A stretch of 10,772 nt of DNA from a virus. The notes beneath the pieces are model-generated. The model ran no database searches. It was not told the DNA's origin and was given only the letters and a program-made list of their open reading frames with translations. The position numbers were made by a program, and so were the translations under genes. Of this stretch, positions 2,176 through 9,154 are shown in pieces (within the stretch, counting starts at the first letter, position 1; each line of letters begins with the position of its first letter). The DNA is taken from UHGV virus genome UHGV-1443384; one strand, 5' to 3'.

Positions 2176-2520
2176 TCAACCAATCAACTTATTGCGTCCT
2201 TTCAGGGCATTACGCCTGGCGCGTTCAATCTTGAGGCATAACGCCGCATCAGGTTTTTCGGGGGTGGGAACAAGGCAATAATTTGATGCGCGCGGAATGT
2301 TGTTAATCCACGCAACAACCTCGCTTAAATACCATGCCTTGCGCCCTTTCGTAACCTGTACGCGTTCGGGGAACTCTCCGCGAGCCTCAAGGTTTAGCAA
2401 TGTGCGACGGCTAAGGGTTGTAAGCTCCACTACCTGATCCATATCAACAAGGCGCTCGCTTAAACTCATTTTGTCATCGATATCTAATAGCTCTCGTAGC
2501 TGACTATCTCTTTCAATCAT
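2176..2520 (-). CDS. AlpA-family HTH DNA-binding protein (114 aa), second copy in the element
   Basis: Motif VVELTTLSRRTLLNLEARGEFPERVQVTKGRKAWYLSEVVAWI fits the phage AlpA / excisionase-type HTH pattern. RBS GAGGT; start overlaps the stop of the upstream gene. Confidence 0.65.
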   Translation of the reverse strand: MIERDSQLRELLDIDDKMSLSERLVDMDQVVELTTLSRRTLLNLEARGEFPERVQVTKGRKAWYLSEVVAWINNIPRASNYCLVPTPEKPDAALCLKIERARRNALKGRNKLIG

Positions 2521-4904: not shown

Positions 4905-5131
4905 TTCACCTGTTCACCTTTTGAGATTTTCCCTTTTTATTCATAATGTTAAGGGGTGAACAGTTTCACAAAAACTATTCACCAACTGTTCACCACTGTT
5001 CACCCTTAAAGCTCAATAAATAATCAAAAAGGTGAACAGTGAATAGTTTGGTGAACAGTTCACAAATAACTGTTCACCATATAATATACTGATATAAAAG
5101 ATATTTATAACAGGGTGAACAGTGGTGAACA
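4905..5131. repeat. Replication origin with P4 alpha-type iterons (about 10 copies of TGTTCACC / GGTGAACA, both orientations) and AT-rich unwinding stretch
   Basis: Octamers at 4911, 4955, 4987, 4998, 5031, 5050, 5071, 5114 and 5124, plus partial copies. AT-rich block at 5080-5110. Immediately downstream of the primase gene. Confidence 0.8.
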
Positions 5132-5145
5132 GTTATTCCATAAGT

Positions 5146-6963
5146 TTAATTTTTGCTGTCGTCATTTGTGACCGATGCACATGATGGCATCCAGTCTTCT
5201 GAATCCTCTGTCAGTGTCACATTTGAACGCAAACCGTGCTTCGTTTTCCGTTTTATATACTCCCTGCCATATTCCGCCATTGCCCCCGGCATATCTTTAC
5301 CGAAGCGCGTCAGTGTTACAGGTTTACCGAATCCGTGTGCCCTCATATATGCCAGATAGGCGTGATAAAGATACCTGCGCGGACTGAACGGAATAATTTC
5401 GGCATTACCCACTAACAGACCATCACACATTACCGACGACATGAGATAGCCACAGAAGTCCACCAGCGAATCGCCCTCGCGTTTTATCACCAGAGCTTCT
5501 TCTGATTTCTGCTGCTCATACAGCAGGCGTTTAGCTTCGTCCTGGTCAGAAAAACGAGTAAGCAGATGGCGAATCACAACCGCCAGCTCTCCTTCTATTT
5601 TTTCTGCCAGCATGGGGTCGCGCTCGTTCTCCGGTACAACCTCCGAAAAATTGAATATCACCCGACGACGTGAGATCCCCCCGCTGCGGTCACTGAATGA
5701 CATGGCGTTATTGTTCACCGCCAGCACGACCGCCTGAATGCGTGTTGAGTAGGGGGCTTTATGCTTCGGGTCGATTGCCACCTTGTCACCGCCTGTAATA
5801 GCCTTAATTCCTGCGCCATCACCAGCGTAGCGGGTCATATCCGGCATGATAATCAGCGAAAAGCCAACCACTAACGCGCGTTCCCTTGCATCTTCCAGCG
5901 CCTTCATGCTTGCCGATACTGTGTTGGCCTTACCCGCCAGCATGGTGCAAATCTCCGCCATCACGCTTTTACCACTTCCCCCTGGACCTGTTACCTCAAT
6001 GAATAACTGCCAGTCGTACCGGTTCGCCAGCACCATGAATAATGCAGCCAGCACGCGATCCGTCTTGCGGTCATTCTCTGCCACCGAGCAGCGTAACCAC
6101 TTCCAGAAATTCGGCGCATGTGTTGCCAGCGTTTCCCCCTCTGCTGGTGGGCTGAAAGGTAATTCACTGGCAATTAACAACCAGTCGTTTTTGTTATGCT
6201 CCCGAAAATTACCTGTTCTGGTATCAAATACCCCGTTACTGAATCCAATCAGGTTACGGGCTGTATTCCCCATTACAGGCAAACTTAACTTCATGGTATC
6301 GACCGCCGATTTAATGGCGTTCTGCGAATAGCTGATCTCCGCATCAATGAAAATCTGTGCCATAGCTCGCTGTAATTCTTTATCCTGTACTGGCTCCCAT
6401 ACAACGCCGTTGTAATGGTGAACAGTGTCAGAGTCAGCATGAATCGCCAGTTCACCGCCATAATGTGCCAGGAGAACTTCGCCGCGTTGACTTGCTCCCA
6501 TCTGGTTAAGCGCCAGTGATGAAGCGTTATCGTCTTTTACCCGCTCTTTTTTCTTTACAGGCAGTTCAACTACCTTTTTCTTTTCCGTCAGCTCTCCCCG
6601 CTCACGTTCCAGATATTCGCGCCAGTTCTCCCGTTTCTGGCTGTGCATTCCTTCAGGGTAATAATCAGCATCCCTGACACCTGCCGCTGCCAGTTTCTGC
6701 CCGATGGTATTAACAAGCCCCGGACGCAATAACCCCGCCTGATAGAGACGCACGCGATAGCGTCCGTCCGGTACGATTTGCAGGTTGTCCAGTTCGGCAA
6801 GTTGTTGCTCTCCAAGCCAGACAGGTGGCACGTTATCGCCAGCCAGTCGCCCGTCCTGTTCCTGCCACTGTTTCGCATGTGCCCACGCATCACTACCCGC
6901 AAAAATGATGACTTCCGTCATTTTGTCACGCGGCTGGTGTTTTAAATTTGGCGCTTTTTTCAT
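5146..6963 (-). CDS. DNA primase/helicase, P4 alpha-like (PICI pri-rep type)
   Basis: Walker A motif VTGPGGSGKSV in the central region; large size; adjacent TGTTCACC iterons. Start set at the ATG (6963) preceded by GGAGAG and overlapping the upstream stop; the track ORF begins at GTG 6978. Confidence 0.85.
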   Translation of the reverse strand: MKKAPNLKHQPRDKMTEVIIFAGSDAWAHAKQWQEQDGRLAGDNVPPVWLGEQQLAELDNLQIVPDGRYRVRLYQAGLLRPGLVNTIGQKLAAAGVRDADYYPEGMHSQKRENWREYLERERGELTEKKKVVELPVKKKERVKDDNASSLALNQMGASQRGEVLLAHYGGELAIHADSDTVHHYNGVVWEPVQDKELQRAMAQIFIDAEISYSQNAIKSAVDTMKLSLPVMGNTARNLIGFSNGVFDTRTGNFREHNKNDWLLIASELPFSPPAEGETLATHAPNFWKWLRCSVAENDRKTDRVLAALFMVLANRYDWQLFIEVTGPGGSGKSVMAEICTMLAGKANTVSASMKALEDARERALVVGFSLIIMPDMTRYAGDGAGIKAITGGDKVAIDPKHKAPYSTRIQAVVLAVNNNAMSFSDRSGGISRRRVIFNFSEVVPENERDPMLAEKIEGELAVVIRHLLTRFSDQDEAKRLLYEQQKSEEALVIKREGDSLVDFCGYLMSSVMCDGLLVGNAEIIPFSPRRYLYHAYLAYMRAHGFGKPVTLTRFGKDMPGAMAEYGREYIKRKTKHGLRSNVTLTEDSEDWMPSCASVTNDDSKN

Positions 6964-7259
6964 TTCTGCTCTCTCCACGCGGCAATCATGTTTTTCAGTT
7001 CCTGTAGTTTTTTATCAACATCCATACATGACACATGGTTATTTCTGGAAGGCGGGATTTCCCGCCGGAATCTGCTAATAAAGATCTCCACGTTCAGCGA
7101 ACTATGAAATGAATAGCCATCACGAATAAAATACACACGGTCAAACATCAGTTCTTTTACCGTTACTCTGTTACCGTTCTTATCCAGATAAATAGCGCCG
7201 GGGATAATTTTGGGGTGTGCATAACCGCTGGCAGTCAAGCCAGATAAATATGTTCTCAT
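6960..7259 (-). CDS. Hypothetical protein (99 aa), coupled to the primase
   Basis: Track ORF; TGA stop overlaps the primase ATG. Occupies the position of the small genes upstream of alpha in P4-like elements. Confidence 0.55.
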   Translation of the reverse strand: MRTYLSGLTASGYAHPKIIPGAIYLDKNGNRVTVKELMFDRVYFIRDGYSFHSSLNVEIFISRFRREIPPSRNNHVSCMDVDKKLQELKNMIAAWREQK

Positions 7260-7265
7260 GATTAT

Positions 7266-7586
7266 TTATCCCCGATTTGAATCAGTATTCGCTTTCTTTA
7301 TGGCATTTAATGCATCTGTGGTATTTTCAATGGTGCACCGTAACGAAATATCAAACTGCCCAAGCATTGCCAGTAACAAACCGATATTACCCATATCAAT
7401 GCGCATGGCCTTTTCGTCATAGTCCTCATTTTCTGACGCATGCCACATCAGGCTACCAATTGACGCAATACCCATTGATATATTGTCAGTAGCCCCATCC
7501 GCAGCGGAATAAACCTTTTTAGCAATATCATGCTCACAGTTAAAATGCGGATTAATCAGGTACTGGTAATTTGACATATCAGGCAT
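7266..7586 (-). CDS. Hypothetical protein (106 aa)
   Basis: Track ORF; strong RBS AGGGGG before the ATG at 7586; acidic protein. Confidence 0.55.
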   Translation of the reverse strand: MPDMSNYQYLINPHFNCEHDIAKKVYSAADGATDNISMGIASIGSLMWHASENEDYDEKAMRIDMGNIGLLLAMLGQFDISLRCTIENTTDALNAIKKANTDSNRG

Positions 7587-7782
7587 GGCACACCCCCTGA
7601 CGAATACGGGCAGCGAATACCATCACGCAGCCAGCCGGAGATTGCTGGCGTGCTTCCTGTTCGCTGGTGGCCTCAATGGTAATCACGCGCGGTTGTGCCG
7701 TGCTCAGGGCGATAAAACGCCAGATGTATTTATTCAGGTTGTGCGAGTCCCGCCCTTGCGGGTGTGTGGTATGATTTCTCAT
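7579..7782 (-). CDS. Small protein (67 aa), possibly Icd-like (host cell-division inhibitor family); first gene of the primase operon
   Basis: Internal ATG at 7782 with RBS GAGGTA within the spurious 359-aa track ORF; stop overlaps the next start. C-terminus ...SPAGCVMVFAARIRQGVCHA recalls Icd-like proteins from memory only. Confidence 0.4.
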   Translation of the reverse strand: MRNHTTHPQGRDSHNLNKYIWRFIALSTAQPRVITIEATSEQEARQQSPAGCVMVFAARIRQGVCHA

Positions 7783-7880
7783 AGCTACCTCGATACTTTC
7801 GCTATCGTTGGTGGTTAGACGCCCTGCATGTGTTGCGAGCACTGCGGGGCGTTGCTTAATTTGAGTGACAAAACTCAAAC

Positions 7881-7959
7881 TGTGCGCACAGATTAAAATC
7901 ATGTGTGCGCACATGTCAATACTTAACATCTCATTTTTTTTGCTGTATTGTGTGCGCCC
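7881..7959. promoter_or_regulatory. Divergent promoter/operator switch: TGTGCGCACA palindromes at 23-bp phasing overlapping back-to-back promoters
   Basis: Perfect TGTGCGCACA at 7881-7890 and 7904-7913 (inside the 16-bp palindrome catgtgtgcgcacatg), half-site at 7950-7959. Minus strand TTGACA-17-TTTAAT has one operator in its spacer and one at the start site. Candidate plus promoter TTAACA-17-TATTGT. Confidence 0.5.
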
Positions 7960-7987
7960 ATAAAGTCCATTTAAGTGAGGTGCATCA

Positions 7988-8185
7988 ATGTCTAGCGGTA
8001 ACACAAACAACAAATCAGCAAAGAAAAATATTCGATTCCCACATGAGCTTATAGATGGGATTGATGCCAGCGTTGAACAAGAAAAATTAACTAATCCTAG
8101 TGCTAATTTTTCCGCATGGGTCTTAGATGCCTGTGGACGCAAATTAAAATATGAACAGCGCCGGAAGGCCAAAGAATCAGAATAA
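7988..8185 (+). CDS. YlcI/YnfO-family (DUF3950-like) small protein, possible ribbon-helix-helix regulator (65 aa)
   Basis: Strong RBS GTGAGGTG. Motif NIRFPHELIDGIDASVEQ...NFSAWVLDACGRKL resembles E. coli prophage YlcI/YnfO proteins (NIRFP...NFSAWV..AC.RRL), recalled from memory. Confidence 0.55.
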   Translation: MSSGNTNNKSAKKNIRFPHELIDGIDASVEQEKLTNPSANFSAWVLDACGRKLKYEQRRKAKESE

Positions 8186-8242
8186 TCACTATCAGCGCCG
8201 TGGTGTGAGTAACTACGGCGCATTGCTATGCAGGGCAACACA

Positions 8243-8416
8243 ATGACCGATAAAGAATTGACCAAAACATTATCACCGACACGGAAAAGACGGCGCAGAA
8301 AGATAGAGCATGAATCAGAAAGATTCGCACCTTGTTCGTTTGCTCTTGAGAAATTCCTTAAAGAGCGCAGGAAAAAACTCTCGTTGCAAACCTTGGAACG
8401 AACCGAATCTGACTGA
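8243..8416 (+). CDS. Hypothetical highly basic small protein (57 aa, RKRRRRK tract)
   Basis: Downstream of the YlcI-like gene in the same orientation; operon ends at the terminator at 8481-8508. Weak RBS; the start could be the ATG at 8228. Confidence 0.35.
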   Translation: MTDKELTKTLSPTRKRRRRKIEHESERFAPCSFALEKFLKERRKKLSLQTLERTESD

Positions 8417-8480: not shown

Positions 8481-8508
8481 GGCGACCGCCCCCGGTCGCC
8501 TTTGTTTT
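8481..8508 (+). terminator. Rho-independent terminator, plus strand (GGCGACC gccccc GGTCGCC followed by TTTGTTTT)
   Basis: 7-bp GC stem with T-rich tail, between the plus-strand two-gene operon and the convergent alpA. Confidence 0.6.
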
Positions 8509-8527
8509 ATGTGTCATATGCTCCCCT

Positions 8528-8737
8528 TTACGCTGCCTTTCCTGAATTAATGCGATCCCGGCTTTTAACCCATTCCATAACCTCAGACTTAACCCAGCCA
8601 ACCGAACGACCTCCAAGACTGATACGGGAGGGAAAGCGGCCTTGTTTTTCCATCTCATAACGAGTTGTACGGCAAACGCCTGTTAGCTCTCTGCATTCTT
8701 TTTCACGGATTACACGATCTTCATTTATTTCGCGCAT
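8528..8737 (-). CDS. alpA: AlpA-family transcriptional regulator / excision-associated HTH protein (69 aa)
   Basis: Motif RVIREKECRELTGVCRTTRYEMEKQGRFPSRISLGGRSVGWVKSEVMEWV fits the AlpA pattern. Start taken at the internal ATG (8737); the track ORF extends to GTG 8821. Lies downstream of int as in PICI and P4-like elements. Confidence 0.75.
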   Translation of the reverse strand: MREINEDRVIREKECRELTGVCRTTRYEMEKQGRFPSRISLGGRSVGWVKSEVMEWVKSRDRINSGKAA

Positions 8738-9154
8738 AAAAAGCCCTACATAAAATTTACGTATAGAAATTTTTGTTTCGCTGTGGATATACGGGAAGGA
8801 ATACTTCTTAGCTTTTTTCACCTCTTAAATTGAATACGTAACCTTTCTGAACTTTATGTTCGTCAAAGTTCGCTAGAGTTTGCTGCTGTTCATAAAATCG
8901 TGTCACGAGTTTTTAAGCGACGCAACAAAAAATGTCGTCATTTGGTATGATACTTGAATTATCTTATTAAAAACAAATAGATAAACCATCAGGTGTTGGA
9001 ATAATCAAGAAACAGAAAATAAGAACTCAGAAGAAGATATTTCAATTTTTTCGATGGTTGACACATATAAAGTGAAGATATTTGCAGATATTTTCCGATA
9101 TTCTACGATTTATTCACGGCTGTAATCTCTTAAAGAAAAAACAGCCGTAATTTG

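Follow-up and report, generated by a model that had tools for sequence, protein, structure and literature searches.

An Icd-like cistron at the head of a P4-like early operon, with a candidate protein-repressor switch, in a phage-inducible chromosomal island of Escherichia coli

Introduction

The DNA analysed here is the virus genome UHGV-1443384, a stretch of 10,772 nucleotides (nt) called the window below. The subject is an early operon on its minus strand, in which genes for proteins of 67, 106 and 99 amino acids (aa) lead into a primase gene. To judge by its sequence, the window is a Gram-negative phage-inducible chromosomal island (PICI) of the EcCICFT073 type from Escherichia coli, inserted between clpS and cspD. 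The closest described systems are the left operon of P4, the immI region of P1, the island EcCICFT073, the regulator RgdR and the phage-triggered death locus of ECOR61. The explanation preferred here, with a probability of roughly 0.6, is that the locus would be a P4-like early and replication operon with an eta/kil-like switch in which a protein repressor replaces the CI RNA.

The left operon of P4 runs vis/orf88, eta/kil with the CI RNA, epsilon, orf151, cnr and alpha. kil is the first translated gene after the constitutive promoter and is lethal when over-expressed, and eta begins upstream, by the alpA homologue (PMC10111431). Translation of eta prevents premature, Rho-dependent termination, according to the summary of Forti 1999 in PMC10111431. 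P1 Icd is a cell-division inhibitor (Riedel 1993 as cited in PMC5944126 and PMC10695390). Its gene stands in immI between the c4 RNA and ant1/ant2, and a note in the P1 record describes icd as "apparently required for expression of ant".

EcCICFT073 is the model Gram-negative PICI. There AlpA turns on its own promoter as well as a fusion to the following open reading frame (ORF), origins in these islands follow pri-rep and contain two sets of iterons, and the pri-ori segment of EcCICFT073 alone supports plasmid maintenance (PMC6092414). In ECOR61 the phage gene orf24 triggers cell death, and Tn5 insertions that suppress it were found in an Icd-like gene and two adjacent small genes; the full effect needs six linked genes including the primase, and the Icd-like protein was named as the likely effector (Silas et al., bioRxiv 10.1101/2023.04.06.535777). 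Suppressors of Abc1-triggered death in ECOR15 fell in a gene with a DUF4102 domain (integrase), P4 AlpA, an Icd-like gene, the gene of a hypothetical protein at 82645-82966, and the primase (bioRxiv 10.1101/2023.04.06.535777). The hypothetical protein may be cnr.

The island

The window is about 99% identical to islands lying between clpS and cspD in many E. coli genomes. The ORF list and family searches give int, alpA, a divergent YlcI/YnfO-family gene, the Icd-like gene, the 106-aa and DUF4222 genes and a D5-type primase, followed by an 81-aa ORF, a protein that binds single-stranded DNA (SSB), a lambda E-like capsid protein, a D-like decoration protein, a second alpA-like gene and a small-terminase-like gene. 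The features by which Gram-negative PICIs are recognised are thus present: int, alpA, a variable regulatory zone, a primase with an iteron origin, SSB and captured lambdoid head genes, in an element of about 10 kb with a chromosomal att site.

For comparison, loci were fetched from other strains and genera and carry L-numbers below (L032 is EcCICFT073 and L004 is NZ_AP022287). EcCICFT073 corresponds to the window gene for gene through int, alpA, the antisense orf62 and ylcI, the Icd-like gene, the small genes, DUF4222 (C1493), the primase, SSB, the E-like capsid protein and the decoration protein. It also has a long frame, of 428 codons, ending in an Icd-like domain, and its AlpA is an activator. 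It differs in its integration site and in having four small genes (76-91 aa) in place of the single 106-aa gene. The layout is therefore ordinary: it matches EcCICFT073 and P4, and RefSeq already annotates the three small genes and the primase in hundreds of E. coli genomes.

Layout of the early operon

The stops and starts of the three small genes and the primase overlap or abut on the minus strand, as the earlier note had stated (Table 1). The stop of the 67-aa gene and the start of the 106-aa gene overlap by 8 nt (ATGCCTGA), 6 nt separate the 106-aa stop from the 99-aa ATG, and the 99-aa stop overlaps the primase ATG by 4 nt in the sequence ATGA (6963-6960). Each start has a Shine-Dalgarno (SD) sequence 5-9 nt before it: AGGT for the 67-aa gene, GGGGG for the 106-aa gene, GGGGA for the 99-aa gene and GGAG for the primase. 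The ORF listing had proposed GTG 6978 as the primase start; the RefSeq homologues start at the ATGA, which places it at ATG 6963.

Table 1. Features of the early region of the window and its surroundings (window coordinates)
Feature	Position	Strand	Details
Likely replication origin, iteron field	4908-5137	.	at least 10 copies of ACTGTTCACC in both orientations, just past the primase stop
D5/P4-alpha-type primase-helicase, 605 aa	5146-6963	-	ATG 6963; last cistron of the coupled set
99-aa basic DUF4222 protein, RgdR family	6960-7259	-	ATG 7259; stop TGA 6962-6960
106-aa acidic protein, predicted two-helix hairpin	7266-7586	-	ATG 7586; stop TAA 7268-7266; phrog_15327
67-aa Icd/Kil-family cistron (short form)	7579-7782	-	ATG 7782; stop TGA 7581-7579; first gene after the operator-flanked promoter-like site
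Eta-like frame ending in the Icd-like domain, 312 codons	7579-8517	-	ATG 8517; SD AGGGGAG
Two-hairpin 5' leader	7791-7852	-	hairpin 1 at 7852-7819, hairpin 2 at 7807-7791; then SD AGGT 7790-7787
Palindromic operator-like sites	7881-7890, 7904-7913 (TGTGCGCACA), 7951-7960 (TGTGCGCCCA)	.	repeat family D1; inverted repeats I2, I3, I5
Promoter-like site, short transcript	7892-7919	-	-35 TTGACA 7919-7914, 16-nt spacer, -10 TTTAAT 7897-7892
Promoter-like site before ylcI	7923-7951	+	promoter scan
YlcI/YnfO-family (DUF3950) small protein, presumed repressor	7988-8185	+	NF041551 59 bits; PF13132 28.3 bits
orf62, 62-aa very basic ORF after ylcI	8228-8416	+	KRRRRK motif; antisense to the long frame
Intrinsic-terminator-like hairpin and T-run, ylcI-orf62 transcript	8481-8510	+	terminator scan; GC-rich hairpin 8481-8500
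AlpA-family regulator	8528-8821	-	PF05930 63.5 bits; upstream entry point of the operon

On comparative grounds the three small ORFs are real genes and not chance ORFs, since each passes a profile threshold (67-aa, NF033153, 69.8 bits; 99-aa, PF13973, 61.1 bits; 106-aa, phrog_15327, 236.8 bits) and has length-conserved homologues in other genera. Junctions of the same types are found in diverged relatives, in P4 and in P1. The Icd-like stop overlaps whichever gene follows it, by 8 nt in L005, L010 and P4, by 4 nt in EcCICFT073 and as ATGA in P1.

The earlier note read the genes as a single coupled operon expressed from an operator-controlled promoter. The coupling stands, and a sigma-70-like promoter sequence with three palindromes does lie upstream. 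The operon would nevertheless have two entry points and not one, because the 67-aa gene forms the 3' end of a frame, 312 codons long, that starts after alpA. The comparison with P4, where the note had placed epsilon and a small orf at this position, was apt as regards the left operon as a whole; the counterpart of the 67-aa gene is kil/eta and not epsilon. It is the 106-aa gene that occupies the epsilon position, and homology between the two was not detected.

The gene order and logic of the P4 left operon match those of the window. In both, a long ORF comes after an AlpA-family gene; its final ~65 codons can be translated on their own as an Icd-like cistron, the next gene overlaps the Icd-like stop by 8 nt, and small genes then lead to a D5/alpha-type primase. 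Unlike P4, the window carries within its long ORF a YlcI-family gene in antisense orientation and a set of palindromic operators, and P4 epsilon, orf151 and cnr have no detectable homologues in it. The likeness to P1 immI lies in a small Icd ORF that comes first in a regulated operon and overlaps the next start. The P1 icd frame is open for only 85 codons and is not nested, whereas that of the window is nested in a long frame; P1 is controlled by the C4 antisense RNA, and its downstream gene is an antirepressor and not a replication gene.

The Icd-like protein

The earlier note had seen, in the C-terminus of the 67-aa protein, a resemblance to Icd-like cell-division inhibitors. The profile search bore this out. 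The protein matches the NCBIfam model NF033153 (phage_ICD_like) with 69.8 bits against a cutoff of 25 (E 1.4e-19), residues 19-62 covering the whole 48-position model. On the same model P1 Icd (from AF234172) reaches 52.6 bits and the P4 eta/kil C-terminus 73.9 bits. In a direct BLASTP comparison the 67-aa protein and P1 Icd are 35% identical over 43 aa (E 4e-6, single comparison), with the common core F/YIWRF...EARxQxPxG...FxAR. A tblastn search of the phage collection with the 67-aa protein (E<=0.01) returned one satellite-like record only and failed to recover P1; kinship with Icd is therefore visible only by profile or by direct pairwise comparison. Sequence searches of solved structures gave nothing meaningful for any of the three small proteins.

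By these profile matches the 67-aa protein is a true member of the Icd family. As in the two described systems, its gene is the first translated cistron of a seemingly regulated operon and its stop overlaps the next start. The analogy with P1 Icd and P4 Kil makes it probable that the product is toxic or stops cell division, and it is from these two proteins that the host-manipulating role suggested for it is inferred. The segment encoding the Icd-like domain is present in 1138 of 5426 complete E. coli genomes.

The Icd-like families phrog_6196 and phrog_1743 (seen at the 67-aa gene and at L003 8168-8584, minus strand) bear the label "transcriptional repressor", so that a repressor function might be read from them. 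That function is scarcely credible. No DNA-binding domain was detected in the 67-aa protein in the NCBIfam and Pfam searches, and P1 Icd is described as an inhibitor of cell division. The label was most likely inherited from the obsolete annotation of a P4 ORF in X51522 as "cI gene product". That ORF matches Phage_ASH (PF10554, 59.7 bits) and bears the Icd-like domain at its C-terminus, and P4 immunity is now ascribed to the CI RNA. It goes today by the name eta, kil being the cistron nested at its 3' end.

The long reading frame

Beyond what the earlier note described, comparison of sequences shows the 67-aa gene to be the end of a far longer reading frame that is conserved, like that of P4. 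Its frame is free of stops from 8682 to 7579, or for 367 codons, versus 25 stops in each other minus-strand frame. The 312-codon frame opens at an ATG that begins 10 nt past the alpA stop and runs antisense to orf62, to ylcI and to the divergent promoter/operator region. A protein search with it returned 1971 matches; among the best 120 of these, lengths are 243-486 aa, coverage 62-100% and identity 62-100%, and most are named Icd-like.

In 17 distinct loci, drawn from at least 11 genera including Klebsiella, Enterobacter, Superficieibacter, Rosenbergiella, Intestinirhabdus, Rahnella, Acerihabitans, Raoultella, Yersinia and Pantoea, the Icd-like domain stands at the close of a frame that is free of stops for 284-462 codons. 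Each other frame of these loci contains 10-27 stops, and P_all ranges from 4.7e-6 to 2.4e-12 per locus. The middle sequences of the long frames are unlike each other except where they mirror the antisense ylcI, and most related loci have a YlcI-family gene antisense within the long frame. In 11 distinct loci the long ORF, of 274-427 aa, has a conserved SD and ATG followed by M..KTKA. The conserved N-terminus, 'KTKATGGGRQW', is encoded by the reverse complement of the terminator-like hairpin at the end of the ylcI-orf62 transcript, so this motif is probably conserved as nucleic acid. The reading adopted here is selection for an open frame that would be translated, as with P4 eta.

The frame could instead be a non-functional shadow ORF or an annotation artefact, in which case only the 67-aa form would be made and the operon driven solely by the operator-controlled promoter. 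Such an ORF would explain the composition of the middle (35 S, 29 L, 24 R and 10 C), the roughly 128 codons that lie opposite ylcI and orf62, their third positions in register, and the frequent choice of RefSeq to annotate the short form and the plus-strand genes rather than the long frame. The extension, moreover, has no Pfam domain, and the frame is broken in L004. A shadow ORF is nonetheless unlikely. The frame stays open across the 17 loci despite their dissimilar middles, in the window its part outside the overlaps gives, by itself, P about 5e-6, and the strong SD and ATG close behind the alpA stop recur. The longest ordinary shadow ORFs elsewhere in the window reach only 151 and 161 aa, and P4 eta is a direct precedent.

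Control region

The minus-strand promoter that would produce the short transcript was read by eye and is a match to consensus only. Three palindromes overlap both this site and the divergent promoter-like site before ylcI. YlcI is the obvious candidate for the repressor that would act there. Its allele in L004, 101 aa long, differs from that of the window, with 65 aa, and the regulatory zone is a mosaic. The second gene of the divergent transcript, orf62, is conserved in L001, L004, L005, L007 and L032 and occurs in every close relative and in EcCICFT073; RefSeq annotates it as hypothetical in some genomes only, and it has no family match, PADLOC and Pfam included.

A leader of two hairpins precedes the 67-aa start. 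In its RNAalifold consensus from 20 loci 94% of cells are paired, with compensatory changes in 9 of the 15 pairs. None of 500 shuffles reaches the observed values, and slid controls pair at 25-43%. The structure matches no Rfam family, and a search for sites complementary to its conserved CUAACCAC stretch gave nothing beyond chance.

The P4 sequence matches the Rfam families C4 (the CI RNA, 74.9 bits) and isrK (seqA, 60.8 bits). Neither is found in the window at E<=1, or at the gathering threshold in L010, L016, L023 and L032. Where P4 relies on an RNA, these islands appear to rely on a protein repressor.

The satellites of Pectobacterium and Samsonia combine a short Icd-like gene and a ylcI in antisense orientation with true homologues of P4 epsilon (E about 1e-18; L024 2108-2407, L025 5060-5359, L026 4720-5019, L030 4704-5018). 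A YlcI-type switch and epsilon can therefore occur together.

The 106-aa protein

The earlier note could name no family for the 106-aa and 99-aa proteins. This holds in the main for the 106-aa protein, which has no match in Pfam (E<=0.1), NCBIfam or PADLOC; its only family match is phrog_15327 (236.8 bits), which is labelled as of unknown function. It does not hold for the 99-aa protein, a DUF4222/RgdR-family member described in the next section.

An indexed search found 19 relatives of the 106-aa protein, all at least 65% identical; an exhaustive HMMER search gave 17, five of which are about 100 aa long and 27-42% identical. The TPR-repeat protein P0178, which also appeared in the exhaustive search, was rejected as spurious, the resemblance being to one TPR-like helix pair. 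A tblastn search of the phage collection returned nothing. AlphaFold2 gave a pLDDT of 58.6 with a shallow alignment and 78.4 when distant homologues were included, the latter with helices at 19-51 and 58-105. A Foldseek comparison of this fold with PDB and BFVD gave generic helical hairpins only, none at E<=0.001.

The protein is acidic, with an isoelectric point (pI) of 4.6. Members of its family profile occur in satellites of several genera and always in the early operon, usually coupled by 4-nt overlaps first to a second small gene and next to the replicase. The replicases are of three types: a D5 primase, an AAA_25 protein and an alpha-like primase. From these matches the family is small and specific to these satellites. 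The 106-aa gene is present in 474 of the 5426 E. coli genomes, versus 1138 for the Icd-like segment. The slot behind the Icd-like gene varies in content, with one gene in the window, three small genes in L005 and four in EcCICFT073. A protein-binding modulator is the probable role of the acidic hairpin.

One such role would be to act as P4 epsilon does, as an anti-repressor by which a lambdoid helper prophage is derepressed or manipulated. The gene sits in the epsilon position, coupled to the Icd/Kil cistron by the identical 8-nt overlap; its product is small, acidic and helical, as is typical of protein-binding inhibitors; and the true epsilon homologues of Pectobacterium and Samsonia lie further downstream of short Icd-like genes. 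The proposal is very unlikely all the same. The 106-aa protein does not match PF25738 ('Derepression'), on which P4 epsilon scores 170 bits, and alignment of its family with epsilon by hhalign gave a probability of 0.1%. Gram-negative PICIs are reported to be induced by the helper, not to induce it (PMC6092414). In most loci, finally, the family is coupled to the replicase module and not to the Icd-like gene.

The 99-aa protein and the primase

The 99-aa protein matches PF13973 (DUF4222) with 61.1 bits at residues 16-67, the gathering score being 27, and is basic (pI 9.7). A DUF4222 gene overlaps the primase start in the window and in L001, L004, L005, L007, L011, L012 and L032. The described member of this family is RgdR (ECs1581), a 99-aa regulator from the cryptic prophage CP-933C/OI-51 of enterohaemorrhagic E. 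coli (EHEC), which turns on LEE1 and type III secretion and represses motility, and whose DNA binding is non-specific (PMC3378721, PMC10877973). C1493 of uropathogenic E. coli CFT073 was named as the RgdR orthologue, and residue 20 of the R-G-D motif (20-22) of RgdR matters for activation of type III secretion (PMC3378721).

C1493 (L032:7946-8245) overlaps the start of the EcCICFT073 primase at 8242, in the same position and with the same length as the 99-aa gene of the window. The published RgdR is thus alike in being a 99-aa basic DUF4222 protein, and its CFT073 orthologue stands directly upstream of an island primase, like the window gene. It differs in that the published phenotypes, those of ECs1581 and C1493, concern host genes and that the window protein lacks RGD; residues 20-22 are P-G-A in the window and R-G-D in C1493. 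In hhalign comparisons the 99-aa protein gave a probability of 0.15% against P4 Cnr (DUF5375) and 6.8% against P4 Orf151, the latter a weak local match of 17 columns.

A 79-aa DUF4222 protein is encoded at L031 15192-15431 (minus strand), next to excisionase remnants of a lambdoid prophage at icd in CFT073, so the family is not confined to satellites. By analogy with RgdR the 99-aa protein probably assists the replication module as a DNA-binding accessory of low specificity.

The primase carries the Pfam domains D5_N, DUF5906 and Pox_D5, belongs to phrog_864 (DNA primase) and matches P4 alpha at 9e-152 in phmmer. The iteron field behind it is the likely replication origin. Neither the 106-aa nor the 99-aa protein is likely to be essential for replication.

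Proposed mechanism and alternatives

The preferred reading, a P4-like operon with a protein-repressor version of the eta/kil switch, would work as follows. In the quiescent island a YlcI-type repressor would hold the internal promoter shut at the palindromes. A helper phage would switch on AlpA, which would give read-through transcripts from the alpA promoter. Ribosomes would load at ATG 8517 and translate the long frame, and this translation, antisense over ylcI, would shield the RNA from Rho-dependent termination. Coupling would then pass the ribosomes on to the cistrons for the 106-aa protein, DUF4222 and the primase. Only the 67-aa form would be made from transcripts of the internal promoter.

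Several observations weigh against this reading. First, at the internal promoter the -10 hexamer is imperfect, and the promoter scanner rejects the site, position 2 not being A. Second, L004, L014, P1 and the Pectobacterium/Samsonia group have the long frame in short or broken form; its absence or breakage in L004 and in the latter group means that it is not obligatory. Its middle has the composition of a shadow ORF, rich in S, L, R and C, and it partly mirrors genes of the opposite strand, so that part of its openness could be a by-product. Third, the RNAs of the P4 switch are those that the window lacks, and Phage_ASH, which P4 has, gave no match at E<=1 with the long ORF of the window or three relatives. 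Fourth, the 106-aa protein is without an informative relative in sequence or fold, and the RgdR homologue of the window is only 34% identical to C1493 and without the RGD motif. Finally, any replication role of the 106-aa and DUF4222 proteins would be only accessory, since pri-ori of EcCICFT073 suffices for plasmid maintenance.

[quoted passage not shown] It differs in its slot genes, which encode about 62 and 64 aa and are of the L005 type, not the 106-aa type, and in that its trigger, orf24, is known. On this model the module could be chiefly a phage-triggered growth-arrest device, acting by abortive infection or superinfection exclusion, with the primase serving only for amplification. The Tn5 suppressors in the Icd-like gene and its two neighbours and the need for a six-gene block that includes the primase (Silas et al.) speak for it, as do gene sizes and overlaps in ECOR61 that fit an L005-type operon, the highly variable slot behind the Icd-like gene, and the smaller number of genomes with the 106-aa gene than with the Icd-like segment. 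On balance this falls on the improbable side, without being far-fetched. Upstream Tn5 insertions in a coupled operon are polar, and the suppressors may therefore simply block runaway replication of the island, which is itself toxic (PMC6092414). The ECOR61 and ECOR15 data thus identify the operon as the source of toxicity and do not single out the responsible protein, as insertions are likely polar. PADLOC found no defence-system model that fits any protein of the region, and the place of the 106-aa family beside the replicase in several genera looks core rather than accessory. Growth arrest would in any case be compatible with the P4-like operon, satellite induction itself being the 'defence'. 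The suppressors of both strains map to this type of operon, which counts in favour of the P4-like reading as well.

A more specific form of the P4-like operon is offered tentatively, at odds somewhat short of even. In it the Icd-like cistron may form the end of a 'translated spacer', a stop-free frame of 270-460 codons that is coupled to alpA in Enterobacterales satellites and has no conserved protein in its middle. The spacer would cross the antisense gene of the YlcI-type repressor, the terminator of that gene and the divergent promoter/operator region.

Other features of the window

The late region contains a second AlpA-family gene, encoding 114 aa (2176-2520, minus strand; phrog_2790), with the decoration-protein gene on one side and the small-terminase-like gene on the other. 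Between the latter and the second alpA-like gene is a near-perfect inverted repeat of about 87 nt (1996-2082), which could be a terminator or a packaging-related site. Matches of Rfam miRNA models to this repeat and to the origin repeats were judged to be chance, as these models fit long inverted repeats. In L004, the closest full-length relative, the island SSB gene (5695-6117, minus strand) is annotated as a pseudogene with an internal stop.

Significance

The position at the head of this operon ties together three literatures: P1 Icd with P4 Kil/Eta, RgdR of EHEC and the phage-triggered death locus of ECOR61. The Icd-like protein is a fourth homologous protein common to PICIs and P4, beyond Int, AlpA and the primase. 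If the translated spacer is real, AlpA-driven transcription with obligatory translation would override Rho polarity, the repressor would be silenced by convergent transcription or antisense pairing, and the conserved two-hairpin leader, which would gate the short Icd start, would be opened. This would be a protein-repressor version of the P4 eta/CI-RNA switch, not previously described. The long frame antisense to the repressor gene, the palindromic operators and the covarying leader RNA absent from Rfam are testable parts of a Gram-negative PICI induction switch. Such islands are common; they mobilise virulence regulators and interfere with phages.

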